Shown here one piece after another: positions 9,453 through 52,913 of a stretch of 64,000 nucleotides of DNA. The notes beneath the pieces are model-generated. The model made no database searches. It worked only from the letters and a program-made list of their open reading frames with translations, and was not told where the DNA came from. Within the stretch, counting starts at the first letter, position 1, and each line of letters opens with the position of its first letter. Source of the DNA: Oxalobacteraceae bacterium (GTDB lineage: Bacteria; Pseudomonadota; Gammaproteobacteria; Burkholderiales; Burkholderiaceae_D). The translations under genes were made by a program, and so were the position numbers. The stretch lies in assembly GCA_027483625.1 (NCBI GenBank), contig JAIXUJ010000021.1, positions 20,690 to 84,689 of the forward strand, given 5' to 3'.

Positions 9453-12059
9453 ATGAAAACCAAGAACAAACAGTTGAAGATTAAGCAGGTAACGTTGTTG
9501 ATCGCCGGGATTTTTTCCGGTTCTGCTTACGCCCAGACGGAGGCGCCGACGGAAGTCACGGTGGTCGTGACGGGCTTGCGGGCGGGTATCGAGCGCAATC
9601 TGGATGACAAGCGTAAAGCCGTCAACGGCCTGGAGGTGATTTCGTCGACCGATATTGGTAAATTCCCGGACACCAACCTGTCCGAGTCCTTGCAGCGCAT
9701 CCCCGGCGTCACCATCATCCGTTCCGAGACGGGCGAGGGTAAGCAGGTCAATATTCGCGGTCTGGGACCAGACTTCTCGCGCAGCGAAGTTAACGGCGGT
9801 GGCGGTTTGAATAGCTTTGACTTTTCCGTGTTGCCGTCCGAACTGTTTTCTAAAGTCGAAGTAGAAAAATCGCCGACTGCCAAATCGATTGAAGGCGGTC
9901 TGGCCGGCACGATCCGCTCCGAAACCGCCAAGCCTTTCGATAGCGAAGGTTTGTCGGTGGTCGGCTCGGTGGGCGCGACGGCTGGCGAGTACGGCGGTGT
10001 GCGGCCACGCATGTTCTTCCAGGTGTCGAATAACTGGGATGACCAGTTCGGTCTGGCGATTTCCGCTGCCTCCTCCAAAACCCATCTGCGCTCCAGTCAG
10101 GTGTCCTTCGGAACCTGGGCGCCATTCCGCGCCGTGGCCAATGCTGCGGCGCTGGCCAGTGCGCCGGCCGCCTTGCTCGACGCAGCGACACCGCGCACCA
10201 CGGCGTTTTACAACTATGAAGAAGAACGTAAGAATCTGGGTCTGGCCGGCACTTTCCAGGCCCGGATTGGTAAGCAGGTCGATCTGACGCTGGACGTGAT
10301 TCACGCCAAGGTAGACGGTGCGCGCACCGACAACCGTCCGGATGCCCCACTGGAAGGCGATGTCAGTCTGCCGGTCAACTATACGATCGCCAATGGCGCG
10401 GTGACCAGCGCCACGTTCGCCGGGATTCAAAACCGGATCGGCACCAGCTTCCGTCCGAAAGAACAGAAACTCGATCAACAGGTGTTGCGCCTGAATGTGC
10501 ATCCCGATGATAGCTGGACGGTGTCGCCCAGCCTGTCGCATCAGGTGAGCGAAGTCAACGATACGCTGAACCTGTATTCGTTTGCGATCAATAATGCCGA
10601 TCTGAGCTATGTTGCCGGTGGTGATACGCCGTCCTTCTCGTCGTCCAAAACGAATTTCAGCACCCGCCCGGAAGCTTACGGTTTTAATGCGCTGGTATTT
10701 GATCGCAATAAAACCCGTATCAGCGATACCGCCGGTGCGGTGGATGTGGTCAAGAAGTTTTTCGGCAGCCCGATTAAGGCGGTCAACTTCGGGATGCGCA
10801 TGACCAAGAGCACCTCGACCTCGAACGGGGCCTCCTCGTTGTTGCTGAACAAGCCGGACAATTTCCAGAAGTTCGCCATTTCCAGCCCCTTCCATTTCTC
10901 CGGTGCGCCGGCCAATGTTCCGGCCAGCATCCTGGCGGTCGATGTCAGCAAAGGTAAAGCGGCGTTCGCCAGTAACACCGATGGCTTCCAGAACGGCACC
11001 GATTTTCTGGTGACGGATCACGGCGAAACGCGTAACTACACGGTGGAAGAAAAAACTTCTGCGGCGTATCTGAGCTCTGATATTACGATCGACAAGCTCG
11101 ACCTCAATCTGGGGCTGCGGGTGGTGCGTACCAGCACCGATGCCAGCGGTAACCAGCTGGTCGGCACGGTGCTGTCGCCGGTCAGTGCCAGCCATAGTTA
11201 CACCGATTTTCTGCCAGCGCTGAATACCCGCTACACCCTGTTCCAGGATGCCTATCTGCGTTCCAGCTACTCGCGCAGTCTGAACCGCCCGAAACTGGGC
11301 GACCTGAGCCCATCGCAAACCATCGACAACGGTGCGCTCACGGGCGTGCGCGGCAATCCGAAACTCGATCCGTATCGTGCCGATCAGTTTGATCTGGGCT
11401 TCGAATACTACTGGCGGAAAGGGGCCATGTTCCAGGCCACCTACTTCACCAAGCAGATCGGTTCGCTGATCTCGCAGGCCAGTGTGACGGAAATCGCGAC
11501 CTATCCCAAGCAGCTGACGGGCTTGCCGTTCACCGGTCCGATTTCGTTCACGCAACCGGTCAACGGGAATAGCGCGAAAGTGAACGGCATCGAGTTCGGC
11601 CTGACCAGCCCGTTCTACTTCGGTCCGGAATTCCTGCGTAAATTCGGCGCGGTGTTGAACTACACCTATGCCAATAGCAATGCTTCGGTGACCAGCAGCA
11701 CGGGTAAAACCACGGTGACGGCACTGCCGGGGCTGTCCAAAAACAGCGTGAATGCGGCGATCTATTACGACAAGGGCGGGCTGGACTCGCGTCTGGCGTA
11801 CACCTGGCGCGACGATTATCTGCGCAATGATGCGACCGGTGTGCAGTTTGGCGGCATGCGCTTTATCAAAGCCTATGGCCAGTTCGACTACTCCCTGAAT
11901 ATTCCGGTCACCAAGACCATCAAGATCGGCATTGATCTGCTGAACATTCTGGATACCAAAACCAAGGAATATTCGCTGCTCGGTAATGGCAACAAGATGG
12001 CCAGCAACATCACCGATAAGGAACGGACCTTACTGCTGTCCTTGCGTGGCAATCTGTAA
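9453..12059 (+). CDS. TonB-dependent receptor (carbohydrate-locus associated)
   Basis: The ATG at 9453 is preceded by GGAGAAGG. It has a signal peptide (SGSAYA|QT), a plug domain (VISSTDIGKFPDTNLSESLQRIPGV) and a large barrel. Confidence 0.9.
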   Translation: MKTKNKQLKIKQVTLLIAGIFSGSAYAQTEAPTEVTVVVTGLRAGIERNLDDKRKAVNGLEVISSTDIGKFPDTNLSESLQRIPGVTIIRSETGEGKQVNIRGLGPDFSRSEVNGGGGLNSFDFSVLPSELFSKVEVEKSPTAKSIEGGLAGTIRSETAKPFDSEGLSVVGSVGATAGEYGGVRPRMFFQVSNNWDDQFGLAISAASSKTHLRSSQVSFGTWAPFRAVANAAALASAPAALLDAATPRTTAFYNYEEERKNLGLAGTFQARIGKQVDLTLDVIHAKVDGARTDNRPDAPLEGDVSLPVNYTIANGAVTSATFAGIQNRIGTSFRPKEQKLDQQVLRLNVHPDDSWTVSPSLSHQVSEVNDTLNLYSFAINNADLSYVAGGDTPSFSSSKTNFSTRPEAYGFNALVFDRNKTRISDTAGAVDVVKKFFGSPIKAVNFGMRMTKSTSTSNGASSLLLNKPDNFQKFAISSPFHFSGAPANVPASILAVDVSKGKAAFASNTDGFQNGTDFLVTDHGETRNYTVEEKTSAAYLSSDITIDKLDLNLGLRVVRTSTDASGNQLVGTVLSPVSASHSYTDFLPALNTRYTLFQDAYLRSSYSRSLNRPKLGDLSPSQTIDNGALTGVRGNPKLDPYRADQFDLGFEYYWRKGAMFQATYFTKQIGSLISQASVTEIATYPKQLTGLPFTGPISFTQPVNGNSAKVNGIEFGLTSPFYFGPEFLRKFGAVLNYTYANSNASVTSSTGKTTVTALPGLSKNSVNAAIYYDKGGLDSRLAYTWRDDYLRNDATGVQFGGMRFIKAYGQFDYSLNIPVTKTIKIGIDLLNILDTKTKEYSLLGNGNKMASNITDKERTLLLSLRGNL

Positions 12060-34196: not shown

Positions 34197-35831
34197 ATGC
34201 AAAAAATGACCCCCTCCTATCTTGCTTCCGCTGTGGCTATGAGCCTGGCGCTGGCATTCCCTGTTCATGCGGCTGGCAATGCCAGCGCTGCTGCCGTCGT
34301 CAAGGAAGCGCCGCTGCGCGCCCATCTGGCTTTCCTCGCCAGCGATGTGCTGGAAGGCCGTGGCACCGGCCAGCGCGGTGCGGACCTGACGGTTGCCTAC
34401 CTCGAAACGCAGGCGCAGGCACTGGGCCTGAAACCGGGCAATGGCAGCAGCTTCCGCCAGTCGGTGATGATCGCCGGCGTCAAGACCGATCCGGCGGCCA
34501 GCACGCTGGCACTGCAGGCTGGTGGTCAGGCGCTGCCGATCCGCTTTGGCGATGACTGGGTGTTCGCCCCCGGCGACGCCACCGCGACCCATGCCTTCGA
34601 TAATGAGCTGGTGTTCGTGGGCTATGGCATCACTGCACCGGACGAACAGTGGAACGACTTCAAGGGTCTGGATCTGAAGGGCAAGGTTCTGGTGATGATG
34701 GTCAATGATCCTCAGCCGACTGCCGAACAGCCGAACCGCTTCAACGGCAAAGGGCTGACTTACTACGGCCGCTGGACCTATAAATTCGAAGAAGCCCGCC
34801 GTCAGGGCGCTGCCGGGGTGTTGCTGATTCACACCACGCCCACTGCCTCGTATGGCTGGAGTGTGATCCAGAACAGCTGGTCGGGTGTGGAGCGCTTCCA
34901 GCTGGCCGCCGGTACGCTGGGCAGTCCGCTGCAAGGCTGGATGACGGATGCCACCGCACAGGCACTGTTCAAGGCGGCCGGTCAGGATCTGGACGCACTG
35001 CGTGCCGCGGCGGAACGCAAGGACTTCAAGCCGGTCACGCTGGCTGCCAAACTGACCGGCACCATGCAGGCTGCCGTGCGTAAAGTCGAGCAGTTCAACG
35101 TGGCGGCGGTGGTGCCGGGTACCGATCCGAAGCTGAAAGACGAAGTCGTCATTTACAGCGCGCACTGGGACCATCTGGGCAAGCAGGGTGAAGGCAAGGA
35201 TGTGATCTTCAATGGCGCGGTGGACAATGCGTCCGGTACCGCAGCACTGCTGGCGATGGCGCAGGAAGCCATCCATGCACCGGCAAAACGTAGCCAGATG
35301 TTCCTGTGGGTAGCGGCCGAAGAGCAGGGTCTGCTCGGTAGCGCGGCCTATGCTGCGGCACCGCTGTGGCCACTGGCGAAAACGGCGGCCAACCTGAATC
35401 TGGATAGTCTGAACTTTGTCGGCGCTACGCGCGACATCGGCACGCAGGGTAGCGAGCGCACCGAACTGGGTCAGCTGGCAAGCAGCACCGCCAAGGCGAT
35501 GGGCATGCGCATTGCGGATGCAGAACCGGATCTGGCAGGCGGCTACTTCCGTAGCGACCACTTCAATTTTGCCAAGAATGGTGTGCCGGCGTTCTCGATC
35601 GAATCGGGCCGCGACTACATCAAGGATGTCGCTGTTGCCAAGGCTAAAGCGGCTGCCTACGGCCCGCGCTACCATCAGGTGACGGATGAATACGATGCCA
35701 GCTGGGATCTGTCGGGCATGGTGCAGACGGCACAATACACGCTCAATCTGGGCCGTGTGATTGCGAATGGCGCCAAGCTGCCGGAATGGAAAGCCGGCGA
35801 CGCGTTCGCCCAGCCACGTAACCGCCGCTAA
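34197..35831 (+). CDS. M28-family aminopeptidase with a PA domain
   Basis: Signal peptide, HWDHLG, NGAVDNASGTA, AAEEQGLLGS and SDHFNF metal-ligand motifs. Confidence 0.85.
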   Translation: MQKMTPSYLASAVAMSLALAFPVHAAGNASAAAVVKEAPLRAHLAFLASDVLEGRGTGQRGADLTVAYLETQAQALGLKPGNGSSFRQSVMIAGVKTDPAASTLALQAGGQALPIRFGDDWVFAPGDATATHAFDNELVFVGYGITAPDEQWNDFKGLDLKGKVLVMMVNDPQPTAEQPNRFNGKGLTYYGRWTYKFEEARRQGAAGVLLIHTTPTASYGWSVIQNSWSGVERFQLAAGTLGSPLQGWMTDATAQALFKAAGQDLDALRAAAERKDFKPVTLAAKLTGTMQAAVRKVEQFNVAAVVPGTDPKLKDEVVIYSAHWDHLGKQGEGKDVIFNGAVDNASGTAALLAMAQEAIHAPAKRSQMFLWVAAEEQGLLGSAAYAAAPLWPLAKTAANLNLDSLNFVGATRDIGTQGSERTELGQLASSTAKAMGMRIADAEPDLAGGYFRSDHFNFAKNGVPAFSIESGRDYIKDVAVAKAKAAAYGPRYHQVTDEYDASWDLSGMVQTAQYTLNLGRVIANGAKLPEWKAGDAFAQPRNRR

Positions 35832-35852
35832 GCGCAGCAGCCGGTTACCAGC

Positions 35853-35888
35853 GGCGGTTGGCGCAGTGCGCCGACCGCCGTTTTTTTT
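35853..35888 (+). terminator. Rho-independent terminator after the M28 peptidase gene
   Basis: GGCGGTTGGCGC-agt-GCGCCGACCGCC (one G-T wobble) followed by G and T8. Confidence 0.8.
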
Positions 35889-35908: not shown

Positions 35909-36622
35909 TTAGTGGTGGAACGACACGGTGATGGTGGTGCCCGTCAGGTCGATGCCACGGATGGCGATACTGCCAAAGCTGGGGCCTTCCGAACCCTTGA
36001 CGCGGATATTGTCGAAATTGATTTCACCGATCGAGGAGGGCATGGCCAGCGTCAACGACCCGTCCTTGTTGATGGTGGCGCTGGCCTTGCTCGGGTCGTA
36101 CACCACATTTTTCATGCTGGTGTCGGCTTCCAGAAAGCCCAGCACGGGATTGACGATTTTTGCCATATCCCCGATCACTTCCAGTCCGTTGTGCTTGGCG
36201 TCCTTGACGGCGTTCACCAGCTGGTCGCTCAGCCCCTGCGCCGAGGTGTCGCCCAGTTCTTCTTCGCTCATCGCCTGCAGGCCGGGCCGTTCATTGATCT
36301 GCAAGCCGCGCTGGTCTTTGGCCAGCAAGACCGGCGTGCCGATCGCCAGTGAGGGCAGGGCCTGCGCCGCATAGCCTTCCAGTGGTGCCAGCAGCGAAGT
36401 GGCAATCGCTGCCGCCATACGCAGCCTGCGCTGCTTGCGCAGTGCCGCTTCGATGTGCTGCTGGCTAATGAGGTTCAACTCGGCAAAAATGTCACCGAGG
36501 CGCTGACCGGTTTTGCGCTGGGTTTCAATGGCGCTGGCCAGTTGTTCTTCGGTAATCAGCTTCTGTTTGACCAGCAGCTGACCCAGCATCGATTTATTCT
36601 GATTATTCGACAACCATCCCAT
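35909..36622 (-). CDS. MshEN-like (c-di-GMP-binding motif) domain fused to a member of the fibre-subunit-like family (P0)
   Basis: The ATG at 36622 is preceded by GGGGAGAA. Residues 12-35 and 41-64 each fit the 24-residue MshEN motif, with a 5-residue spacer. A hydrophobic segment follows, then MSEEELGDTSAQG, and the C-terminus is FGSIAIRGIDLTGTTITVSFHH, as in P1/P2. Confidence 0.7.
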   Translation of the reverse strand: MGWLSNNQNKSMLGQLLVKQKLITEEQLASAIETQRKTGQRLGDIFAELNLISQQHIEAALRKQRRLRMAAAIATSLLAPLEGYAAQALPSLAIGTPVLLAKDQRGLQINERPGLQAMSEEELGDTSAQGLSDQLVNAVKDAKHNGLEVIGDMAKIVNPVLGFLEADTSMKNVVYDPSKASATINKDGSLTLAMPSSIGEINFDNIRVKGSEGPSFGSIAIRGIDLTGTTITVSFHH

Positions 36623-36638
36623 CGCCTGTTCTCCCCTT

Positions 36639-36698
36639 GTATGCCGGCTATCATGCCGGCTTATTCTGCTGCCTAGTATGCTGCCTAGTATGCCAGCC
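36639..36698. repeat. Five-unit degenerate 12-nt tandem array upstream of P0
   Basis: GTATGCCGGCTA / TCATGCCGGCTT / ATTCTGCTGCCT / AGTATGCTGCCT / AGTATGCCAGCC. It includes a perfect 12-nt tandem CTGCCTAGTATG x2 at 36669-36692. Confidence 0.6.
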
Positions 36699-36752: not shown

Positions 36753-37754
36753 TTATGCTGACTTGCGTGGTAACCCTGCCTGCAAGGCTTCCGGATGAGG
36801 CCCCGGCTGATTGGCCTGTTGCACAATATCGGACGGCGCCATGCCGAACCAGCGCTTGCAGGCGCGATAGAAGGCACTCGGTTCCGAAAAGCCCAGCTGG
36901 AAACTGAGCATTTTCAGCGACAGTTCGCCGCAGCTGAGTGACTGGCGCGCCAGTTCGCGGCGCGTATCGTCCACCAGATTGGTGAAGCTGGTACCTTCTT
37001 CGGCCAGCCGGCGTTGCAAGGTACGCTCGCTCATCATCAGCTGCGCCGCCACGTCGTCGCGGTGCGGCGGCCCCTTCGGCAGCAGGCTGGCCAGCAAGGC
37101 CTGTACCTTGGCGCTGAAGGTGGGCGGCTCGGCGCGTGCCAGCGTGGCCAGCACCCGTTCGCCGCTGCCTTCGGCCAGTGGCGGATTGGCCGGCAGCGCC
37201 ATGACCAGATCGGTGTCGGAAAACTCCATGACATTGTGCGGCATATCGAACTTCACGGGGCAGCCGAAGGTTTCTTCGTAGACGTGGGCGTTGGCCGGTG
37301 CCGGGAAGCTGTATTCCACCACCACCGGTGCGATGTCATCGCGTCCGGCAGCGCAGCGCAGCGAGCGCAGCAGCACGCACCAGACGAAGTCGTAGCGCTG
37401 TTGCGGCACACTGCGGCGCGCGCCCGGCAGCAGCAGGCCGACGCGGGTATTGCCATGGCAGCGTTCGATCGAACTTTGCACGGTGGGCGAGACCAGCATG
37501 ATGTGGCCCATCACGCCCAGCCAGCCGAGCCGGTGGGGCGAGGAGATTTTCAGGCCGATCAGGGGATCAGCCGATTGCGCCACCACCAGTTCCCACAGGT
37601 GGCTGAGTTTATCGGACAGCGTCAATGCGTCGCAGGCCAGACCCTCGCCTTCGTTCAGACCGGCTTCGGCGAACAGTGCATCGGCGGCGACACCTGAATT
37701 GATCAGCCGCGATTTCACGCCGCGCACCAGATGCAGGGCGGACGAGTAACTCAT
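36753..37754 (-). CDS. AraC-family transcriptional regulator
   Basis: C-terminal double HTH (ERTLQRRLAEEGTSFTNLV...LSFQLGFSEPSAFYRACKRWFG) and an N-terminal AraC ligand-binding-like domain. There is a 4-nt overlap with the upstream gene. Confidence 0.85.
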   Translation of the reverse strand: MSYSSALHLVRGVKSRLINSGVAADALFAEAGLNEGEGLACDALTLSDKLSHLWELVVAQSADPLIGLKISSPHRLGWLGVMGHIMLVSPTVQSSIERCHGNTRVGLLLPGARRSVPQQRYDFVWCVLLRSLRCAAGRDDIAPVVVEYSFPAPANAHVYEETFGCPVKFDMPHNVMEFSDTDLVMALPANPPLAEGSGERVLATLARAEPPTFSAKVQALLASLLPKGPPHRDDVAAQLMMSERTLQRRLAEEGTSFTNLVDDTRRELARQSLSCGELSLKMLSFQLGFSEPSAFYRACKRWFGMAPSDIVQQANQPGPHPEALQAGLPRKSA

Positions 37755-38308
37755 GGCGTAACCGCTGCGCGCAGACGCAGGCCGATTTTCTCTTTCAGGC
37801 CTTGCAGCTTGGGATCGATCACGGCGCGCGTGTCGGCCGCCACGCCTTCACCGAGGGTTTTCTGCATTTCCGGCAGCATGGCTTCGAATTTTTTCTTCAC
37901 CGGCGATTCGAGAATCGCGATCAGCTGGCGCAATTCCTCATCCGTGTAGCGTTCCGCCAGCAACGGTGCGATTTTGGCCAGGATCAGTTTGTCGGCGCTA
38001 GCCTTGGTAATCGGCGTGGCATCGGCCATGAAGGCTTTGGCCTCGTTGATGATGTCGGTCATGGCGGCCTCGCGTTTTTCCGGTGCGGCGCGGCCCTGCA
38101 GCATGGCGCGCGCCTGCTGCACGGCGTCGGCGACCGGAACTTGCAGCATGGACTGGCCGATGTTGTCCGGATTCCACAGCTTCAGCACCTGATCGACCAG
38201 CGCCTGTTTGGCGGGCGACACCGCTGCTGCATGGGCACCGGCGCAGGCTGCGCTCAGGGCTAGCAGCACCAGGCCGCGCTTGCAGTGGGTGATAAGGGGT
38301 GTGCTCAT
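37751..38308 (-). CDS. DUF2059-like periplasmic protein
   Basis: Signal peptide (AGAHA|AAV). YTDEELRQLIAILESPVKKKF matches the DUF2059 hallmark. Confidence 0.6.
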   Translation of the reverse strand: MSTPLITHCKRGLVLLALSAACAGAHAAAVSPAKQALVDQVLKLWNPDNIGQSMLQVPVADAVQQARAMLQGRAAPEKREAAMTDIINEAKAFMADATPITKASADKLILAKIAPLLAERYTDEELRQLIAILESPVKKKFEAMLPEMQKTLGEGVAADTRAVIDPKLQGLKEKIGLRLRAAVTP

Positions 38309-38326: not shown

Positions 38327-39955
38327 TCAGAAACGCTTGTTGATTTCAAATCCAACATAGCGCACGTGGATATCGCCTTTGACGTTCTGGCCGGCATAAG
38401 GGTTGTAGATAATGTTCAGGAAGTTGCTGCAATTGAGATTGCAATCGGTGTTCGCTGGCACGTCGTAGCGCCCCGTCATATACGAGGCAGTGACGCTGAT
38501 ATCGGTGGTCTTGCTGAGTTTGAAATTCAGTCCGCTACTCAGCAGCTTGGTATTCGGCAGTGGTGCCAGCAAGTCGATCTTGTCGTTCGGCACCGAGGTT
38601 TTGCGCGGTTCGAAACCGAAGCGCAGGGTCAGCCGGTCGAACGGAAACAGTTGCAGGCCGTAAGCGAAATTGACCAGACTTTTGTAGCCGCGCGGGATCA
38701 CCAGCTTGCCCGAATCGGGGATGCCGTACAGGCGCGCCACTTCCAGCAGCTTGATGCTCTGGTCGAACTGGAAGCGTAGCGCATCCCATTCGCTCCAGCG
38801 CGCGTAGCTGGCGTCGACATTCAGCTGCACCAGCTGGATGGGGCGCAACTTGATGCCTACCTGCAGGTGCGACGGGAAGGGAATGATGGCGCTCATATTG
38901 CCCTTCTGGGTGGCCGGAATCGAGCTGGGGAAACCCAGCGTGGCGCCAGCAATCGGTCCCAGCAGACTGGCGTTCATGCCGCGCACAAAGTTACGCAGCA
39001 TCGGTTCCGTGTCGAACTTGTAGTAGCCGGTGTAGTGGGTCTTGGAACCGCCCTGATACACCACGCCGAGCGCGAAGCGGGGATTGGGTTCCCACAGCAC
39101 GCCGAGGTTGAGGGTGGGATCGAACGGCGCGGTCATTTCCAGGCGCATATTGGCGGCCTTCTTGAACGGGCTGACCATGCCCTCTTTACCGCCGCCGCAC
39201 ACGCCGAAGCCGAGCACGTCGATGATGTTGCCGCCGTCTTCCGGGCACCAGCCTTTCTGCAGCTGGCCGAACACGCCCAGCAGCTCGTTCGGGAAGCGCA
39301 TATTGGTATCGACCACGAAGGCGGCGTGGGCAATCGGCACGGCCACGCCGAAGCGCAGCGTGTCGGAATATTTGTAGCCGACCGAGGGCGACAGATACAC
39401 CAGACGCTGGATCTGTTCCTGCCGCCCCTGATACTGGCCCGGATCGTTGGGATCGGTGGTGCGGTCCAGACTCATGGCCTGCGCCATATAGCTGTCAGTG
39501 GCAAAAGTCCATGGCGAACCGGCCTTGTTCCATGCCATGCCGACGCCCGGCACGGCCACGGCGGGCAGGCGCCAGCCCGGCATGCCGTAGCCGGGTACGA
39601 ACATCACCTGACGTACCGGCCCGGTACGGGTGTTGGAGAGCGGATCCTCGGTCCAGCCGCCGATGTCGAAATTGGCACCGGGCTTGAAGCTGGCCGAGGT
39701 GCGGATCGAGGCGACAAAGTTGTGGATCGATTCGCTATCGCCCGTCAGGCGTGCCAGTCCGGCCGGATTGAAGTGGATCGAGGCGATACCGGGCGGATCG
39801 GCGGTGACGGCATTGCCGAGCGACATGGCGACCACACTGGTGGTCAGATTTTCCGTCAGCGCCGCGTCGCTGCTGAGCGGCCACAGGGCGGCGCAGGCCG
39901 CCGCGATAGCAGTGGCGGCAAGGCGCGGACCGAGCGGGGCGGTGTGCGGGAACAT
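38327..39955 (-). CDS. FadL/TodX-family outer-membrane transport protein
   Basis: 542 aa with a signal peptide, IHFNPAGLARL near the N-terminus, alternating beta-strand pattern and a terminal ...INKRF. Confidence 0.75.
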   Translation of the reverse strand: MFPHTAPLGPRLAATAIAAACAALWPLSSDAALTENLTTSVVAMSLGNAVTADPPGIASIHFNPAGLARLTGDSESIHNFVASIRTSASFKPGANFDIGGWTEDPLSNTRTGPVRQVMFVPGYGMPGWRLPAVAVPGVGMAWNKAGSPWTFATDSYMAQAMSLDRTTDPNDPGQYQGRQEQIQRLVYLSPSVGYKYSDTLRFGVAVPIAHAAFVVDTNMRFPNELLGVFGQLQKGWCPEDGGNIIDVLGFGVCGGGKEGMVSPFKKAANMRLEMTAPFDPTLNLGVLWEPNPRFALGVVYQGGSKTHYTGYYKFDTEPMLRNFVRGMNASLLGPIAGATLGFPSSIPATQKGNMSAIIPFPSHLQVGIKLRPIQLVQLNVDASYARWSEWDALRFQFDQSIKLLEVARLYGIPDSGKLVIPRGYKSLVNFAYGLQLFPFDRLTLRFGFEPRKTSVPNDKIDLLAPLPNTKLLSSGLNFKLSKTTDISVTASYMTGRYDVPANTDCNLNCSNFLNIIYNPYAGQNVKGDIHVRYVGFEINKRF

Positions 39956-39976: not shown

Positions 39977-41002
39977 TTAGAAGTTGAGTGGCATGCTCAT
40001 GCCTACCGTCATGTTCGGCGAGTCCGGCGTCAGGCCGATACCGACCGACAGATTGACGGTGGTCTTGGGCGAGATGCGGTAGCCGAGGCCCATGTTGAGC
40101 AGGCTCGAGGTCTGCATATGGGTTTTCGCTTCCAGCCCGTCAGCGAAGCGCAGTTTCGAACCGGCCGAGATGGCTTGCTGGAAGGACAGTGTGGTGGAAA
40201 TGCCATACGACAGCGCATACGCAAAGCCCATGCCGAAGCCGACCGTGGTGCCCGGCTGGACGCGCGTCAGGATGCGCGTGCCGTTGACTTGCCACAGGTT
40301 TTTGGCGGGCAGGCTGGCGGTGACGTTCAGCGAGCCGAACAGCGCGACCGGATCGACGATGCGGTTCACACTCAGGCCGGCGGTCAGAGCGCCGACGCCG
40401 CTGCCGGTCGCTTCGCCGCTACCGGCGATGATTTTGAACGGGCTGCGTCCGGTTGGCAGACGCACATTGCTGGTGACGGTCAGGCCCGGCGTATCGCGGC
40501 GCGCTTCGAACGGCTGCCAGCGTGCACCCAGCGACAGGTCGCCCAGCGAATTGGAGGCGCCGTTGGACAGGTTGTTGTCCGAGTAGCGCGAGATAAACGG
40601 CATGGTGACGTTGCCGGTGAGGTTGTCGAGCAGGCCGTAGTCGACCGAGAAGGTGTTGGTGACGCTGTGCGAACTGGTGTTCTCGATGTTGAACAGGGTG
40701 GTGCTGCCATTGGCCAGATCGGTGACGATGCGTTCTTCGCCGATATAGGAATAGCTGAGGTCATAGGTCACGGACAGCTGCTTGCGGCGGATCAGCGAGT
40801 ACTGCTTATCGACGGCGGTCAGGGTCTGTTGCAGCAGCGCGCTCTGGTCGCCTTCGCCTTCTTTTTTGGCCAGCGCATCGCGCGCAGCGTCGGCACTGGC
40901 CGGTGTGCTTTGCTGGGCCATGGCGGGCAGGGCGACGATGCCGGTGAGGGTGGCAATGGTGGCGGCCAGTACGGTCTGTAGCGGGAACTTCATGGTATTC
41001 AT
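39977..41002 (-). CDS. Outer-membrane beta-barrel protein with an N-terminal helical extension (transporter / MetA-pathway-like family, tentative)
   Basis: 341 aa with a signal peptide (PAMA|QQ), a ~50-aa charged helical stretch (ARDALAKKEGEGDQSALLQQTLTAVDKQYSLIRRKQ), amphipathic strands and a terminal ...MPLNF. Confidence 0.65.
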   Translation of the reverse strand: MNTMKFPLQTVLAATIATLTGIVALPAMAQQSTPASADAARDALAKKEGEGDQSALLQQTLTAVDKQYSLIRRKQLSVTYDLSYSYIGEERIVTDLANGSTTLFNIENTSSHSVTNTFSVDYGLLDNLTGNVTMPFISRYSDNNLSNGASNSLGDLSLGARWQPFEARRDTPGLTVTSNVRLPTGRSPFKIIAGSGEATGSGVGALTAGLSVNRIVDPVALFGSLNVTASLPAKNLWQVNGTRILTRVQPGTTVGFGMGFAYALSYGISTTLSFQQAISAGSKLRFADGLEAKTHMQTSSLLNMGLGYRISPKTTVNLSVGIGLTPDSPNMTVGMSMPLNF

Positions 41003-41030: not shown

Positions 41031-41801
41031 TTAGTTACGGTGCATCCAGGAGCCTGCGGCGCCCGAATTGACAGCCCGCAGTAACTGCTGGGCAGAGTTG
41101 CTCATCAGGCCATCCTGCCGGCCCTTGTTGGTGACGCGATCCATGTCGGTCACCCCGAGTTCGCGATCGGTGAGTGCCAGCTTGGCCAGTGCTGGCTGGC
41201 CGGCTGGTGGCGAGATAATGAACAGGGTGTTCTTGTCCCACCAGCGGGCGAATTCTTCCACTGAAAAGACGATGTTGCCGGCCGATGGATCGGCCAGAAA
41301 TACCACCCCGTCGCGGATCCCGCGCAAGACCACGAAGTGCTTGGAACCGGCATAGTCGATCGGCACGATGGCCGGTTCGGTGAGCGTCATCAGGTCTTTG
41401 ATTTCGGCGCGGAAGCCGGCGCCGGACAGGCCCAGCGAACCGACGTAGCGCTTCATGTCGAGCAGGGAAAAACCGCGCCGCTCGATGATTTTTTCTTTCT
41501 CGCCTTTTTCCAGCATGCCTTCCATGGCTTGCTGTTCGTTGACCATCACGCCGAGGTGATAGTTGAGCACGGTAACCAGTGCGGCCGAGCCACAGCTGAA
41601 GTCGAAGGCTTGCCGGACGATGTTGTGGTACTTGAGTTCGGAGAACGGTTCGGCGCGGTAGGACTGTACGTAGTGGCCCCCGCCCACCAGATTCTGGGGC
41701 ATCTCGAACTGGTCACGCGGGCGGTCTTGCGGAGTGTGGCGTTCGATCAGGCCGGCACCGCCGATGACCGCTGCCAGCACGCCGATCAGGAGCATCAGCA
41801 T
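41031..41801 (-). CDS. Stand-alone membrane-anchored C39-family cysteine peptidase
   Basis: N-terminal TM helix (MLMLLIGVLAAVIGGAGLI). The catalytic set is present: Q64 and C70 (VRQAFDFSCGSAAL), H155 (SKHFVVL) and D171 (LADP). There is no fused ABC-transporter domain. Confidence 0.8.
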   Translation of the reverse strand: MLMLLIGVLAAVIGGAGLIERHTPQDRPRDQFEMPQNLVGGGHYVQSYRAEPFSELKYHNIVRQAFDFSCGSAALVTVLNYHLGVMVNEQQAMEGMLEKGEKEKIIERRGFSLLDMKRYVGSLGLSGAGFRAEIKDLMTLTEPAIVPIDYAGSKHFVVLRGIRDGVVFLADPSAGNIVFSVEEFARWWDKNTLFIISPPAGQPALAKLALTDRELGVTDMDRVTNKGRQDGLMSNSAQQLLRAVNSGAAGSWMHRN

Positions 41802-42329: not shown

Positions 42330-42839
42330 ATGCAAATCGTTAAAACCGCAATCGCAGCAGCCCTGGCAACTCTGGCATTCTCGGCTTCGGCCATGACCCC
42401 GATTCAAGACGCCGAACTGAGCACCGTCAGCGGTCAGGACGGCGTATCGATCGCCGCCAATCTGAACATCAAGATTGATTCCTTCACCTACACCGATACC
42501 GACGCAGTCGACGCCAACGGCCTCGGTGGTGGTTCGATCGCCTTCAACGGCATCAAAGTGAACGGCCTGATCGCTGCCAACATCGACATCCTGTCGAAAG
42601 CATCGTTCCTGCAAGCTGCAGGCGCTGCCGGCGTGACCAACCCAGGTACCTTCTACAACCCAGCCACTGGCGGCGATGTGGTGCAGATCGCGATTCCACA
42701 GAGTGTGGTCGCTGATGGTCACTACATGAACGTGTCGGTGGACTCGATCAAGATGGGTAACAGCGCTGCTTCCTTCGGTTCGGTTGCCATGAACCAGATC
42801 GATATGCGCGGCACCACCGTGTGGATCTTCGCACACTAA
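42330..42839 (+). CDS. Secreted fibre-subunit-like protein P1 (FilA/DUF6160-like, tentative)
   Basis: SD GGAGA. Signal peptide ...FSASA|MTP, then IQDAELSTVSGQDGVSI. It is beta-rich and ends FGSVAMNQIDMRGTTVWIFAH. Confidence 0.8.
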   Translation: MQIVKTAIAAALATLAFSASAMTPIQDAELSTVSGQDGVSIAANLNIKIDSFTYTDTDAVDANGLGGGSIAFNGIKVNGLIAANIDILSKASFLQAAGAAGVTNPGTFYNPATGGDVVQIAIPQSVVADGHYMNVSVDSIKMGNSAASFGSVAMNQIDMRGTTVWIFAH

Positions 42840-42992: not shown

Positions 42993-43502
42993 ATGCAATT
43001 CATCAAAACCGCAGTCGCAGCAGCCCTGGCAACCATCGCTTTCTCGGCATCGGCCATGACCCCGATTCAGGACGCAGAGCTGAGCACCGTCAGCGGCCAG
43101 GACGGCGTATCGATCGCTGCCAACCTGAACATCAAAATCAATTCCTTCACCTACACCGATACCGATGCACTCGATGCCAACGGTCTGGGTGGCGGTTCGA
43201 TCGCCTTCAACGGCATCAAAGTGAACGGCCTGATCGCCGCCAACATCGACATCCTGTCGAAAGCATCGTTCCTGCAAGCTGCAGGCGCTGCCGGCGTGAC
43301 CAACCCAGGTACCTTCTACAACCCAGCTACCGGCGGCGACGTGGTGCAGATCGCGATTCCACAAAGCGTGGTCGCTGACGGCCACTACATGAACGTGTCG
43401 GTCGACTCGATCAAGATGGGCAACAGCGCTGCATCGTTCGGTTCCGTCGCCATGAACCAGATCGACATGCGCGGTACCACCGTCTGGATCTTCGCTCACT
43501 AA
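42993..43502 (+). CDS. Secreted fibre-subunit-like protein P2 (tandem paralog of P1)
   Basis: 169 aa with 6 aa differences from P1, four of them in the signal peptide. SD GGAGA. Confidence 0.8.
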   Translation: MQFIKTAVAAALATIAFSASAMTPIQDAELSTVSGQDGVSIAANLNIKINSFTYTDTDALDANGLGGGSIAFNGIKVNGLIAANIDILSKASFLQAAGAAGVTNPGTFYNPATGGDVVQIAIPQSVVADGHYMNVSVDSIKMGNSAASFGSVAMNQIDMRGTTVWIFAH

Positions 43503-43558: not shown

Positions 43559-44359
43559 ATGATGACGACCTTGCGTACCCGCTGGCTGCATGCGCTTGCC
43601 TTGCTAGCGATGATCTGCTGCACGCAGATGGCGACGGCACAGATGCGCGCACTGAGCGAAGCAGAACTGTCCAGCATGCACGGACAGGGCATCGTCGCGA
43701 TGAGTAATACCAGCCTGAATGGTTTTGATTTCAGTAAAGTGTCGCTCGATGCCGACATTACGCTGAGTGCCAATCTGCGCAATGTGCGGCTCGGTGAATA
43801 CACCTATGCAGCGCGCAACGGCAGCGGTGCCGATCTCGATATCGCCCTGTTGCAATTTGGCCGCAGCGATGGCAGCGAGGCGCAGCGCCTGGTGCATATC
43901 GCCAATCCCTATTTCGAATTTGTTTACCGCAATGCCGCCGATGGCGCCAGCCGCGAAGCGATCGGCATGCGCTTCGGTTTCGATGCCATCAGTGGTGACA
44001 TCGGTATGAAGATCAATACCCTATCCGGCTCGATGGCCGTGACGGGGCGCGCTGCCGATGGCAGTACCGTGCAACTCGATACGCGTAGCGATGCGCTGGG
44101 TGGCAAGCGCTGGGACGGTGGCTGCACGGCGCCCTGTCTGACGCTAGCGCAAGTGGGTGGGGTGACGGCAGGCGACGCGAGTGGCCCGAGCCGCGACTTC
44201 TGGATTTCGCTGCTCAAGACGGGCGTGCAGTTCCCCACTGCGACGGGCGTACCGGCTGCCGATGCGGCGCAGTCGGGCGTGTGGCTGAACTGGCGCGACA
44301 AGCTGCAGGCCATCAATACGAGCGGGCTGGTGCCTGCCAATCTTCCCAAGGGGCGCTGA
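43559..44359 (+). CDS. Secreted family member P3 (266 aa)
   Basis: Signal peptide ...ATA|QM, then ALSEAELSSMHGQG. It lacks the His-terminated C-terminal strand and has the only Cys pair in the mature parts of the family (GGCTAPC). Confidence 0.7.
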   Translation: MMTTLRTRWLHALALLAMICCTQMATAQMRALSEAELSSMHGQGIVAMSNTSLNGFDFSKVSLDADITLSANLRNVRLGEYTYAARNGSGADLDIALLQFGRSDGSEAQRLVHIANPYFEFVYRNAADGASREAIGMRFGFDAISGDIGMKINTLSGSMAVTGRAADGSTVQLDTRSDALGGKRWDGGCTAPCLTLAQVGGVTAGDASGPSRDFWISLLKTGVQFPTATGVPAADAAQSGVWLNWRDKLQAINTSGLVPANLPKGR

Positions 44360-45258
44360 TGACACGCCCTGCAGTCCGTTCGAGCTGGTCCCTGCGCAGC
44401 ACACTGTCGCTATGGCAGTGCCTGCTCCTTACCGTGTTGCCCGGTGCAGCGTTACCGGCACTGGCGCTCGAGCCGCTCAGTGATGCGGCCTTGTCGGCGG
44501 TGCGCGGGCGCGATGGCGTCAGTTTCGATCTGAACGGTTTCGCCATGAGTGGCGATGCACGCGTCAGCTACACCACGCCGCTCGGCACGACCTTGTATGT
44601 AGAGAAATTCAGTGCTTCGCGCAGCGATAATCCGCTGCCGTTTTCCGATCCGTATAAGCTCGACATCGTGCCCGGCGCAGCTGGACTAGCCGATGTGGTG
44701 AACATCGCGTTTCCCCTCAATACCTTCGGCGAGCAGCGCTGGCAGATGGCCTATGACTGGGGCGTCACGGCCGATGGTGTGACGCGCGAGCAGAGTAGTG
44801 TGGTGATCAAGGATCTGGTGCTGTATGGCGGCGGCATGCAATTCACCACGCCGCAGATCAATGACGGCGTGGCGTTCGGTGCGGCACTGCGCATGGATAT
44901 CGGCGAGCTGTCGCTGCGCGCACGCGGTCGCACCGATGACAGCGAAGCGATGGTGTGGCGCGGCATTCATGTTGGCGCGGTCGATGGCAGCGGTCTGTTT
45001 ACCAGCACGCCGTGGATGCTGGCCAATGTGGCCTCGCAACCGGCGGTGATCAATGCGCTCAGCGACGAAACCGGGCCGCGCCTGCACATCGGTATCGATT
45101 GGCCGGATAGCCGTTACGGTAGTGGCGTGGCGCCCGCCGGCGGCATCGTAGTCGATAATATTTCCTTTGTCAGTCCGAATCAGCCCACGGTGGATCTGGG
45201 CTCCTCGCGTATCGGGTCGATCCAGATCCAGTACCTCGATATCAAGTTCAAACACTGA
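44359..45258 (+). CDS. Secreted family member P4 (299 aa)
   Basis: The start overlaps the P3 stop (TGATG). ...ALA|LEPLSDAALSAVRGRDGVSF, and the C-terminus is IGSIQIQYLDIKFKH. Confidence 0.7.
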   Translation: MTRPAVRSSWSLRSTLSLWQCLLLTVLPGAALPALALEPLSDAALSAVRGRDGVSFDLNGFAMSGDARVSYTTPLGTTLYVEKFSASRSDNPLPFSDPYKLDIVPGAAGLADVVNIAFPLNTFGEQRWQMAYDWGVTADGVTREQSSVVIKDLVLYGGGMQFTTPQINDGVAFGAALRMDIGELSLRARGRTDDSEAMVWRGIHVGAVDGSGLFTSTPWMLANVASQPAVINALSDETGPRLHIGIDWPDSRYGSGVAPAGGIVVDNISFVSPNQPTVDLGSSRIGSIQIQYLDIKFKH

Positions 45259-45770
45259 TGGCGCGCCGATTCCTGATGCGACGTGCTGCGGCCTGCCTGC
45301 TGATGACGGGCCTGACGCTGGCCGCGTCCAGTGCCAGCGCTGGTGCTGGCACTGGTGCGGGGGCGCTGCGTGCGCTCGATGATCAGGAACTGGCGCAAGT
45401 AACTGCGCGCGATGGTATCAGCTTCGCTGCCCACATTTCGCTCAATGATCCGACGCTGGTGGGCGCGGTCAGCGATAGCCGGCTGTCGCTGGGCTTTAAT
45501 GGCGACGGGCAGAATCGCTACATCGTGTTCAAGAATGTGCGCGGTAAAGTGGATATGTTTGCCGTGACGCTGGGTGTGCAGACGCGTAGCGATGGCGGCG
45601 GCGATTATATCGCCATCGGCTTGCCGGGCTTTGTGCGCTACACCAATCTCGGCTTTGAATCGCTGAGCGTGCAGAACGATCCCACGGCGCCTGTGACGGG
45701 CAATCTGGGCAGCCTGAATATCAATGGCACCGTGTCCCTGCAGGGACAGGTGCGTCTGTGGTCACACTAG
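45258..45770 (+). CDS. Secreted family member P5 (170 aa)
   Basis: The start overlaps the P4 stop (TGATG). ...ASA|GAG...ALDDQELAQVTARDGISF, and the C-terminus is LGSLNINGTVSLQGQVRLWSH. Confidence 0.7.
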   Translation: MARRFLMRRAAACLLMTGLTLAASSASAGAGTGAGALRALDDQELAQVTARDGISFAAHISLNDPTLVGAVSDSRLSLGFNGDGQNRYIVFKNVRGKVDMFAVTLGVQTRSDGGGDYIAIGLPGFVRYTNLGFESLSVQNDPTAPVTGNLGSLNINGTVSLQGQVRLWSH

Positions 45771-51920: not shown

Positions 51921-52913
51921 TTAGGCCGACTGCAGGGCAGCGCTATGCAGGGCGACGCGGTTGCGTCCCTCGGCTTTGGCGCGGTACAGGGCTGCGTCGG
52001 CATTCGCGATCAGGGTCTGTTCGTCCTGCCCCGCTTGCAGCGCGGCGACCCCGAAGGATGCCGTGATGTGCGGCAGGGGCGTGCGCATGTCGGCAAACAC
52101 CTGCGCTTGCCGCATCCGTTCGCACAGCCGTTCGGCCACTGCGACGGCGACTTTTTCACTGGTATCGGGCAGCAGCACCATCATTTCCTCACCACCGTAG
52201 CGGACTGCGAAATCGGTCGGCCGCAGCGCACTGCTGAGCACCGAGGCGGCCATCCGCAGCGCCTGATCGCCGGCCAGATGGCCGTGGCTATCGTTGAAGC
52301 GCTTGAAGTGGTCGAGGTCGATCATGATCAGCGACAGCGGCGCATGCGAGCCTTGCGCGGTGGCCACCATGGTGGGCAGCAGATCGTTTAGCCATGAGCG
52401 GTTATACAGATCGGTCAGCCCGTCGATCATGGATAGCTGGCGGTAGAACTCGCCGAGCTTCTGACGCCGGCGCAGTTGTGCATTGGCGGCGCGGATACGG
52501 AAAGACAGCAGGCGCAGCAGATTGCGCGCCAGCACATGCGATTCGTCGATCAGTTGCCATACCAGTTCGGACGAGATCACCAGCACATCGGTTTCTTCCA
52601 GTGCGGTGATGGAACTGAGATTGGCTTCTTCGTCCAGCACCGACTGTTCGCCCACGCTTTCGCCCGGCAGGATCTTGCTGATGGTGCCATCGGCCATGCC
52701 GGTGCGGGTATCGGTGGCCACTGACAGGGCGCCACGCAGCACGATGTACAGATGCGCGTGCTGCGCTTCGGCAATACTTTGCTCGGCCTCCAGCCGCATG
52801 ATGGGGCAGGGCGCGAGCAGTTTGGCGACGGCAGCCGCATCGGTGGAATTGCGTAGCAGTTGCAGATCGCTGATCTGGTAGGGCGAGGCGCCGAAGGTGC
52901 TGATGTGTTTCAA
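51921..52913 (-). CDS. Diguanylate cyclase with an N-terminal cyclic-nucleotide-binding domain
   Basis: cNMP-binding-like N-terminus (GESVGEQSVLDE...). The GGDEF domain has an RYGGEEM active site and an RPTD (RxxD) I-site 5 residues upstream. Confidence 0.85.
   Translation of the reverse strand: MKHISTFGASPYQISDLQLLRNSTDAAAVAKLLAPCPIMRLEAEQSIAEAQHAHLYIVLRGALSVATDTRTGMADGTISKILPGESVGEQSVLDEEANLSSITALEETDVLVISSELVWQLIDESHVLARNLLRLLSFRIRAANAQLRRRQKLGEFYRQLSMIDGLTDLYNRSWLNDLLPTMVATAQGSHAPLSLIMIDLDHFKRFNDSHGHLAGDQALRMAASVLSSALRPTDFAVRYGGEEMMVLLPDTSEKVAVAVAERLCERMRQAQVFADMRTPLPHITASFGVAALQAGQDEQTLIANADAALYRAKAEGRNRVALHSAALQSA

Follow-up and report, generated by a model that had tools for sequence, protein, structure and literature searches.

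INTRODUCTION

The MshEN domain, a receptor for cyclic dimeric guanosine monophosphate (c-di-GMP), consists of two 24-residue motifs joined by a 5-residue spacer (Wang et al. 2016, PMC5013675), and it has been described on ATPases, on glycosyltransferases and on 'other domains' (PMC5013675). Here we analyze P0, a protein encoded in a 64,000-nt stretch of Oxalobacteraceae bacterium DNA (GCA_027483625.1, JAIXUJ010000021.1 positions 20,690-84,689), referred to as the window, whose positions serve as coordinates throughout. P0 very probably begins with an MshEN domain, continues into a segment that looks like a cleavable signal peptide, and ends in a leader-like motif and a C-terminal domain related to the subunits of a fibre encoded nearby. 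A first-pass annotation of the window had supposed such an arrangement to be undescribed, and our literature search agrees, as it returned no publication on a fusion of MshEN with an export signal or with DUF6160-type proteins. What is new is not the receptor but its location ahead of a signal peptide and the partner it is joined to.

With the ATPases MshE, PilB and PilF, P0 shares the two 24-residue motifs, the 5-residue spacer, the LG pairs, the Leu/Ile positions and the Gln residues, and its predicted fold is the same four-helix bundle. In contrast to these proteins, P0 lacks MshEN_C and the ATPase, has Met at the position of Arg9 and replacements of the turn glycines, and continues into an export signal rather than a cytoplasmic output domain. 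NfrB also carries a minimal MshEN on a non-ATPase envelope protein for the extracellular matrix, and the NCBIfam NfrB model aligns to P0 residues 6-74. However, NfrB is a c-di-GMP-activated glycosyltransferase whose MshEN is C-terminal and acts on its own cytoplasmic catalytic domain, whereas the partner domain of P0 would lie across the membrane.

LapD (acting with LapG), Alg44 and PelD are inner-membrane c-di-GMP receptors with periplasmic or envelope outputs, and the partner of LapD is a periplasmic cysteine protease. Their receptor domains are of the degenerate EAL/GGDEF, PilZ or GAF type. The likeness of P0 to these proteins is functional only, in that a cytoplasmic c-di-GMP receptor is joined across the inner membrane to a periplasmic matrix or adhesin step; there is no sequence or domain kinship, and P0 has no HAMP or rigid relay and a membrane segment that looks cleavable. 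Pfam and NCBIfam scans of P0 revealed no GGDEF-EAL receptor, HAMP relay or LapD-type protease-binding domain.

Secretion in the Fap system requires the periplasmic C39 protease FapD, and the N-terminally processed FapE has been proposed as an initiator (PMC5557850). Similarly, the locus studied here encodes a periplasmic C39 protease and a FapF-like channel together with secreted subunits, and P0 may be compared with FapE, which is minor and processed. In contrast to Fap, the subunits here are DUF6160-type, helical and pilus-like rather than Q/N-rich amyloid repeats, an extra FadL-like protein is encoded, and P0 has no detectable FapE similarity. By analogy, we regard Fap as a functional precedent for the P0 system and not as a homologue. 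We know of no c-di-GMP domain on any Fap protein. The neighbours of P0 match the FilA, FilB, FilC and FilD models of the Acinetobacter Fil locus (NCBIfam FilA-FilD, 'putative pilus system'), but they do so far below the cut-offs and are thus relatives, not equivalents; P0 itself matched no Fil-named model at E up to 10.

RESULTS

The N-terminal domain of P0

The open reading frame of P0 (35909..36622, minus strand) translates into 237 aa followed by a stop codon. The first-pass annotation had placed two 24-residue motifs, separated by RKTGQ, near the N-terminus, and these positions were exact. Motif 1, MLGQLLVKQKLITEEQLASAIETQ, spans residues 12-35 (36518..36589, minus strand), the spacer RKTGQ residues 36-40 (36503..36517, minus strand) and motif 2, RLGDIFAELNLISQQHIEAALRKQ, residues 41-64 (36431..36502, minus strand), so that residues 12-64 are read from 36431-36589 of the minus strand. 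The NCBIfam model NF053729 ('c-di-GMP_motif, MshE-related') matched P0 residues 13-64 with model positions 2-53 of 53, at 60.2 bits (E 1.2e-16) against a cut-off of 38 bits, and it also matched all of 26 diverse P0-family members. When a profile of 17 orthologues was compared with solved structures, PilF (6f8l, 5.6e-14), PilB (5zfr, 8.8e-10) and MshE (5htl, 1.6e-8) were found. The alignment with MshE was collinear and gap-free (P0 residues 8-67 versus MshE 5-64), with motif 1 on MshE residues 9-32. Among the six-frame open reading frames of the window, the tandem relaxed motif occurred in P0 only.

An AlphaFold2 (AF2) model built from an alignment of 26 family members had a predicted local distance difference test (pLDDT) score >90 over the MshEN domain, with helices at 12-19, 25-38, 42-48 and from 54 onward. 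The four-helix bundle fold of MshEN_N is present in this predicted structure, and its top Foldseek match was 5htl_B, MshE with c-di-GMP (54 columns, root mean square deviation (rmsd) 0.7 Å, 37% identity).

The Pfam model T2SSE_N (PF05157, a domain of ~110 residues) did not match P0 at E up to 10, nor any of the 26 family members at E up to 0.01, because P0 holds only the 53-residue N-subdomain without MshEN_C. We did not accept this null result as a refutation of the MshEN identity, since NF053729 and the solved structures match. Thus, the T2SSE_N-like N-terminus suggested in the first-pass annotation is of the MshEN_N type by profile, by sequence search against solved structures and by predicted fold, although it lies outside the Pfam model of that name; the accompanying statement that the domain is not attached to an ATPase was borne out. 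We are highly confident that the N-terminal domain of P0 is MshEN. In the model, residues 12-64 are shown to form the MshEN_N four-helix c-di-GMP receptor module, for which ligand binding is a prediction.

P0 starts with an ATG at 36622, and a Shine-Dalgarno-like GGGGAG was read directly from the sequence 8 nt 5′ of it (36631..36636, minus strand). The sequence MGW stands at the same start in all P0 homologues aligned, and the start is kept in >100 homologues. In comparisons with orthologues, synonymous differences were 2-3 times as frequent as non-synonymous ones in codons 1-64, and the synonymous excess runs along the whole gene. The common MGW start and the purifying selection on codons 1-64 indicate that the N-terminus of P0 is translated, and a start codon downstream of residue 64, which would have removed the domain, is not what these data show. 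An internal start at Met69 was ruled out by the purifying selection on codons 1-64 and by the lack of a conserved Met at this position.

Kept and altered ligand residues

To locate ligand residues, P0 was mapped onto MshE via the gap-free alignment from the profile search with 17 orthologues. MshE residues L10, G11, L25, Q32, R38, L39, G40, L58 and Q61 are kept in P0, where they are L13, G14, L28 and Q35 in motif 1 and R41, L42, G43, L61 and Q64 in motif 2. For the six key residues of each motif (R, L, G ... L ... L ... Q), 9/12 are identical, two are Leu-to-Ile changes (L29, L54) and one, Arg9, is Met. The most critical residue of MshE is the Gly of each RLG, and G11L and G40I were unresponsive to ligand (PMC5013675). 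Both of these glycines, whose mutation abolishes binding, are kept in P0 as G14 and G43. Over 26 sequences of 24-86% identity, the invariant columns were G14, L17, Q35, G43, L61, Q64 and R68, that is, ligand-contact residues plus a basic residue, R68, after the domain.

Several substitutions weigh against c-di-GMP binding by P0. The turn glycines at motif position 10 are both missing (G18 to K21, G47 to N50), as the first-pass annotation had correctly given them, and both replacements fall outside the relaxed [GAS] set (PMC5013675). In addition, the equivalent of Arg9, the first residue of motif 1, is Met, a change that the first-pass annotation had not flagged. P0 accordingly breaks the relaxed motif of Wang 2016 at two positions in motif 1 and at one position in motif 2. 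In MshE, Arg9 stacks on the ligand base via its aliphatic side chain and the turn glycines are structural (PMC5013675).

The wider family was examined in 276 full-length members selected for two motifs at a 29-residue start-to-start spacing, so that this set provides no test of the spacing. The first residue of motif 1 was R in 147 members and M or L in 116, and the turn residue was G in about half. Both turn glycines were absent in every one of ~44 members beside fibre genes, and all members with RG in both motifs were orphans. Loss of the turn glycines is thus a hallmark of the fibre-operon clade. Distant members are canonical, reading KSRLGxLLVxxGLI...Q, five residues, and RLGEVLVxxGxxT...Q. 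In other lineages the MshEN domain was lost or decayed while the rest of the protein was kept (P0160, P0163, P0176, P0192 and others).

These observations raise the question of whether the MshEN of the fibre clade has ceased to bind c-di-GMP and serves as an interaction or folding module, as in degenerate T2SSE_N, with P0 being a minor fibre protein that has a long signal n-region. The Met or Leu at Arg9, the replaced turn glycines beside Fil genes, the lack of a Pfam T2SSE_N match and the lineages without the module would all fit this explanation. However, the ligand-contact residues are invariant in the fibre clade too, including both LG pairs, the Leu/Ile positions and both Gln residues, and purifying selection acts on the MshEN domain. 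Despite K21 and N50, the model could be superposed on ligand-bound MshE with an rmsd of 0.7 Å. Moreover, because the Arg9 contact is aliphatic stacking (PMC5013675), Met or Leu could substitute for it. We consider a degenerate module quite unlikely, and retain MshEN as a predicted c-di-GMP receptor.

The segment following the MshEN domain

Residues 65-88 (36359..36430, minus strand) consist of a basic stretch and an Ala-rich hydrophobic segment, RRLRMAAAIATSLLAPLEGYAAQA, with AQA before L89; we examined them by AF2, Kyte-Doolittle (KD) hydrophobicity and family counts. The last MshEN helix enters RRLR and then MAAAIATSLLAPLEGYAAQA without a linker, and the AF2 helix at 54-87 is unbroken. The KD maximum of P0 was 1.82 at residue 69 with a 13-residue window and 1.19 with a 19-residue window. 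The usual 19-residue KD value for a membrane helix is 1.6. In the family, the best 19-residue window had a median of 1.57 and reached at least 1.6 in 120/276 members, a point against reading the segment as a cleaved signal. Because hydrophobicity is spread in this way, KD cannot separate a cleaved signal from an anchor.

Other family characters were more uniform. Two or three K/R residues stood just before the hydrophobic stretch in 269/276 members, and a Pro followed by a small-x-small (P...AxA-like) site stood just after it in 272/276. Three homologues of the C-terminal part that lack MshEN (P0141, P0145 and P0159) begin with an ordinary signal peptide where P0 has this segment; other homologues of this part have a decayed N-terminus. 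The relatives P0206, P0217, P0223, P0246, P0252 and P0270 carry a lipobox Cys right after the hydrophobic stretch. On the basis of the K/R and AxA counts, the MshEN-less homologues with a signal peptide and the lipobox relatives, segment 65-88 of P0 resembles a cleavable signal peptide more than a stable anchor. No Fil genes were found within 10 kb of the MshEN-less homologues P0145 and P0141, which is uninformative.

The segment is followed by a variable linker, residues 89-117 (36272..36358, minus strand), which is probably disordered, as its alignments are rich in indels and pLDDT was <50 at 91-118. This linker bears on an alternative in which P0 is a stable bitopic inner-membrane receptor of the LapD/LapG kind, whose uncleaved anchor presents the leader-like motif as a pseudosubstrate that holds or frees the FilB-like protease or the subunits according to cytoplasmic c-di-GMP. 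A single AF2 helix that extends MshEN helix 4 across the hydrophobic segment and the 120 members with a 19-residue KD of at least 1.6 are consistent with an anchor, and the 29 residues before the P0 leader, which have no counterpart in the true subunits, give a layout compatible with a tethered bait; in addition, the operon includes a gene for a periplasmic cysteine protease. In contrast, a conformational signal could hardly be transmitted through a juxtamembrane region that varies in length, is predicted to be disordered and has no HAMP-like or rigid relay. The 19-residue KD maximum of 1.19 in P0 itself, the AxA-type site in nearly all members and the lipoboxes or plain signal peptides at the same position in relatives also speak against an anchor, and we regard the bitopic receptor as unlikely. 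A disordered linker beside the membrane makes a LapD-like conformational relay less likely, which favours control of export or processing.

If both predicted cuts occur, at AQA and at the leader described below, the sensor may not stay attached to the structural part. The first-pass annotation had put a second-messenger sensor directly on a structural or anchor component. The order of the parts agrees with this, in that a hydrophobic segment follows MshEN, but the junction looks like a signal peptide (19-residue KD 1.19, AQA site).

Leader-like motif and C-terminal domain

The leader-like motif of P0, MSEEELGDTSAQ, covers residues 118-129 (36236..36271, minus strand), with a predicted C39 cut at Q129/G130, and shares its register with five subunit genes. 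These genes lie on the plus strand and encode two major and three minor proteins. Major fibre subunit 1 (42330..42839, 169 aa) belongs to DUF6160 (Pfam 1.7e-20), has the leader IQDAELSTVSGQ and the mature start DGVSI, and ends in FAH; major fibre subunit 2 (42993..43502, 169 aa) is identical to it at 163/169 residues. The minor subunit-like proteins have 266 aa (43559..44359, leader LSEAELSSMHGQ), 299 aa (44359..45258, leader LSDAALSAVRGR, ending KFKH) and 170 aa (45258..45770, leader LDDQELAQVTAR, ending LWSH). The five leaders (42402-42437, 43065-43100, 43652-43687, 44476-44511 and 45375-45410, plus strand), identified by their register match with P0, directly follow signal peptides and read, with the next residues, IQDAELSTVSGQ/DG (twice), LSEAELSSMHGQ/GI, LSDAALSAVRGR/DG and LDDQELAQVTAR/DG. 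P0 also has an LxDxELxxVxGQ-type leader after an export signal, with the differences that its signal is internal and that the 29-residue linker stands between the two. All six leaders have hydrophobic residues at -12, -7 and -4, Glu at -8, a small residue at -2 and Gln or Arg at -1. Comparison of the P0 leader with the min7 leader gave an hhalign probability of 91%, and E120, Q129 and G130 were invariant in orthologues. The claim that P0 has the same leader-like motif as the secreted subunits was therefore upheld.

Double-glycine leaders with the consensus LSxxELxxIxGG are cut by the C39 peptidase domains of bacteriocin exporters, and the six leaders described here follow the register of that consensus. 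Residue -1 of the P0 and subunit leaders is Gln or Arg rather than Gly, the leader comes after a Sec signal, the protease is periplasmic, and cleavage is predicted. A C39 cut site GG/GA has been reported (PMC5557850). The major subunits matched the protomer of PDB entry 9XFV with E 3.7e-25, and residue 1 of the deposited chain aligns with D37 of subunit 1, directly after the leader. This entry, 'pilus-like-alpha', is a helical fibre determined by cryo-electron microscopy (cryo-EM) from karst-cave water, and no gene cluster or biogenesis was reported for it (PMC12956863). The match and the chain start after the leader indicate that the fibre is real and that its ordered part starts at the predicted cut. 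Together, the leader pattern and the 9XFV start point to a periplasmic C39 maturation step after Sec export, with the caveat that the predicted FilB cut site is placed from the start of a deposited cryo-EM model and not from N-terminal sequencing.

The predicted mature P0, residues 130-237 (35912..36235, minus strand), has helices at 133-163 and beta strands at 164-233 in AF2 models. Its last ~63 residues resemble the C-terminus of the major subunits (SFGS...I.IDL.GTT.....H), with a phmmer value of 1e-4 to both, and the hhalign probability of P0 against the subunit family was 86% (E 5e-6, 124 columns). The N-terminal beta region of the subunits (DGVSIAxxLNIxIxSF...) is absent from P0, which has the predicted helices 133-163 instead. 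Two results weigh against this kinship. The top PDB match of the model of P0 residues 114-237 was 9xfv_A but was weak (Foldseek E 0.058, template modelling (TM) scores 0.29/0.22, rmsd 14 Å), a comparison in which the P0 monomer model may not reproduce the filament conformation. In addition, Pfam DUF6160 did not match P0, and it matched only 3/26 family members, at best with 2.3e-6. The His-terminated C-terminal strand, which the first-pass annotation had likened to that of the subunits, proved to be homologous as a domain, but the last residue was R in 120 and H in 96 of the 276 members.

Gene neighbourhood and distribution of P0 homologues

Between P0 and the subunit genes, the minus strand of the window encodes the candidate fibre machinery. 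A C39 cysteine peptidase (41031..41801, minus strand) with an N-terminal hydrophobic signal is FilB-/FapD-like (Pfam Peptidase_C39 1.8e-17, FilB 1.1e-62, FapD 2.2e-36) and has Cys70, His155 and Asp171 as well as the motifs SCGSAAL, KHFVVL and LADPSAG. It is accompanied by a FilC-like/FapF-like outer-membrane channel (39977..41002, minus strand; NCBIfam FilC 9.9e-81 and FapF 7.2e-23, both below the cut-offs) and by a FilD-like outer-membrane protein of the FadL/OmpP1 family (38327..39955, minus strand; Pfam Toluene_X 3.3e-34, FilD 7e-122, the latter below the cut-off).

Close P0 homologues all belong to Oxalobacteraceae (Duganella, Rugamonas, Janthinobacterium, Pseudoduganella, Massilia and Noviherbaspirillum) and are annotated 'hypothetical'; the nearest relatives of the window are a pond metagenome-assembled genome and Duganella fentianensis. 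Homologues number in the hundreds. A profile search of 1.84 billion representatives returned 59 clusters at E <1e-30, many of them full-length, and a second search revealed the family in Marinobacter, Alkalimarinus and other Gammaproteobacteria, mostly misnamed 'pilus assembly protein PilB'.

We surveyed 62 loci with a full-length P0 homologue, a sample biased towards Oxalobacteraceae. FilB-, FilC- and FilD-like genes were found within 10 kb of the P0 homologue at 47 loci, at 46 of them together with subunit genes, and three short contigs had a partial fibre-gene arrangement. The location of P0 varied: in most cases it stood after the machinery operon, but L043 and L045 have it behind the minor-subunit genes and L039 behind a FilA-like gene, and L057 has two copies that flank the locus. 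Thus, the link between P0 and the fibre genes survives rearrangement. The remaining 12 loci had no Fil genes, four of them being short or without a full flank on one side.

The other eight of these loci (L036, L040, L042, L044, L046, L047, L049 and L061) lack Fil genes despite full 10-kb flanks, and in Marinobacter and Alkalimarinus the gene lies between a peptidyl-prolyl isomerase gene and flgN-flgM-flgA or cheV-cheR, again with no Fil genes within 10 kb. These loci weigh against a role in the fibre system, and would be expected if the family were a general c-di-GMP effector, perhaps linked to motility, whose place in the fibre operon is incidental or a secondary recruitment. The second copy beside the atp operon in Duganella fentianensis and the orphan loci of Noviherbaspirillum, Rhodoferax and Bermanella fit the same explanation. 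However, the Fil-adjacent loci, over three quarters of the survey, span 42-100% identity and four gene orders, the orphan members keep the leader-like motif and the subunit-like C-terminus, and three family members match Pfam DUF6160 directly. We therefore judge a family functionally unconnected to the fibre to be very unlikely, and a role of P0 in the fibre system to be probable.

Some of these loci had further features. The canonical members of Marinobacter and Alkalimarinus (L084, L085, L086, L001 and L087) are ~240 aa long, annotated PilB and without an ATPase, and in Alkalimarinus a GGDEF gene lies divergently upstream of the P0-family gene. A second, more canonical P0 paralogue (motif 1 SRFG...RGLI) lies beside atpAGDC in L042 (Duganella fentianensis, 10001-10675) and in L044. 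The Duganella fentianensis genome holds both the operon-linked copy (L003) and this atp-adjacent copy, the latter far from Fil genes.

MshEN modules ahead of other export signals

The search of 1.84 billion representatives also returned proteins in which MshEN stands ahead of a lipobox or an AxA signal peptide (P0206, P0246, P0252, P0216, P0217, P0223, P0244, P0270, P0214, P0224, P0239, P0240, P0248, P0255, P0260, P0263 and P0269). In eight clusters, one to four copies of MshEN are followed by K/R, a hydrophobic stretch and a lipobox Cys, with the lipoboxes LNAC, LTGC, LASC, ITAC and MTGC and often a Gly-rich linker next. The passengers of these MshEN-lipobox proteins include a C39 peptidase domain, a right-handed beta-helix (pectate-lyase-like) and an fn3 domain. 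In a further group, three copies of MshEN and a classical AxA signal peptide are combined with a domain of ~135 residues ending in WPLxIS. No Fil-like clusters were found around the MshEN-lipobox-C39 proteins P0252, P0206 and P0246, so these proteins document the module but provide no link between it and the fibre system. As judged from these sequences, MshEN directly ahead of a predicted cleavable export signal is a recurrent architecture on several kinds of extracytoplasmic protein, which suggests a general MshEN-plus-export-signal module.

Other features around P0

Two further genes lie between P0 and the machinery genes. An AraC-family regulator (36753..37754, minus strand; Pfam Arabinose_bd and HTH_18) is encoded upstream of P0 on the same strand, and a DUF2059-like small periplasmic protein (37751..38308, minus strand) was assigned from a weak Pfam DUF2059 match and synteny. 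In most loci of Duganella and Rugamonas, the AraC-family gene separates P0 from the DUF2059-like gene; it is absent in Massilia, where the DUF2059-like gene is directly upstream of P0. The DUF2059-like gene is the most constant neighbour of P0, being present at nearly all Fil-adjacent loci, and its product could be a chaperone. About 15 kb from P0, a 330-aa protein (51921-52913, minus strand) ends, by reading of its translation, in a GGDEF-type diguanylate cyclase region (RYGGEEM), and is a possible local source of c-di-GMP.

A promoter scan found no sigma-70-like sites upstream of P0 or in the divergent region. A perfect 12-bp tandem duplication, CATACTAGGCAG x2, is located at 36669-36692 (minus strand), 47-70 bp upstream of the P0 start codon. 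We rejected this repeat as a regulator site, because the closest relative, L002, has a single copy and the sequence is absent at other loci; the 12-bp duplication is thus apparently confined to this strain. Immediately 5′ of the ribosome-binding site of P0 is an inverted repeat, GCCGGC-ATGATA-GCCGGC (36643-36660, minus strand), which has no T-run after it on the minus strand. At the other end of the gene, a GC-rich 15-bp hairpin with a T-run (35850-35882) lies between the convergent ends of P0 and an M28-like peptidase gene (34197-35831), and is likely the terminator of the latter, which is on the plus strand.

DISCUSSION

We propose that a minor, subunit-like component of a Fil-like fibre system is made from P0 as a precursor under the control of c-di-GMP, a proposal to which we give an even chance of being right as a whole. 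The system would comprise DUF6160-type 'pilus-like-alpha' subunits, a periplasmic C39 protease, a FapF-like channel and a FadL-like outer-membrane protein. In this model, the MshEN module would be kept in the cytoplasm while the rest of P0 passes through Sec. The signal could then be cut, so that the sensor is discarded, or it could be kept as an anchor until the FilB-like protease acts; the proposal accommodates both options. The protease would cut P0 after Q129, as predicted after GQ or GR in the subunits, and free a piece of ~108 residues. Because the freed piece has the subunit C-terminus but not the N-terminal beta region, it could join one fibre end only, as an initiator or a cap.

The most tentative part of this proposal is the gating step. 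Binding of c-di-GMP beside the signal peptide may decide the insertion, export or release of P0, and fibre assembly would thereby be set post-translationally by the cellular c-di-GMP level. That export of P0 is gated specifically by c-di-GMP is possible, but we place it well below the proposal of which it is a part. A still more doubtful extension is that MshEN domains before cleavable signal peptides act in general as c-di-GMP-operated export switches, in which the ligand in the pocket would expose, mask or fix the signal-peptide helix.

Control of the matrix by c-di-GMP is known to operate via transcription factors, glycosyltransferases, secretion ATPases and the LapD-LapG relay. If our proposal is true, the export or processing of one limiting subunit, with the receptor fused to the export signal, would be a new control point. 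Two consequences concern the annotation of known sequences and structures. The window provides a candidate biogenesis cluster for the 9XFV fibre type, including a C39 protease, a FapF-like channel and a FadL-like outer-membrane protein, so that a fibre known only as an environmental cryo-EM structure gains a gene cluster and a likely maturation step, the C39 cut at a double-glycine-like leader. In addition, hundreds of Marinobacter-type entries named 'pilus assembly protein PilB' are small MshEN proteins with an export signal, not ATPases.

If the MshEN-plus-export-signal proteins are indeed export switches, the cell would decide post-translationally which matrix proteins cross the inner membrane. 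The passengers would include P0-type fibre components, C39 protease lipoproteins, beta-helix polysaccharide-lyase-like lipoproteins and the 'WPLxIS' family. P0 would then be the first recognised export switch, setting the number of pilus-like-alpha fibres started per cell.

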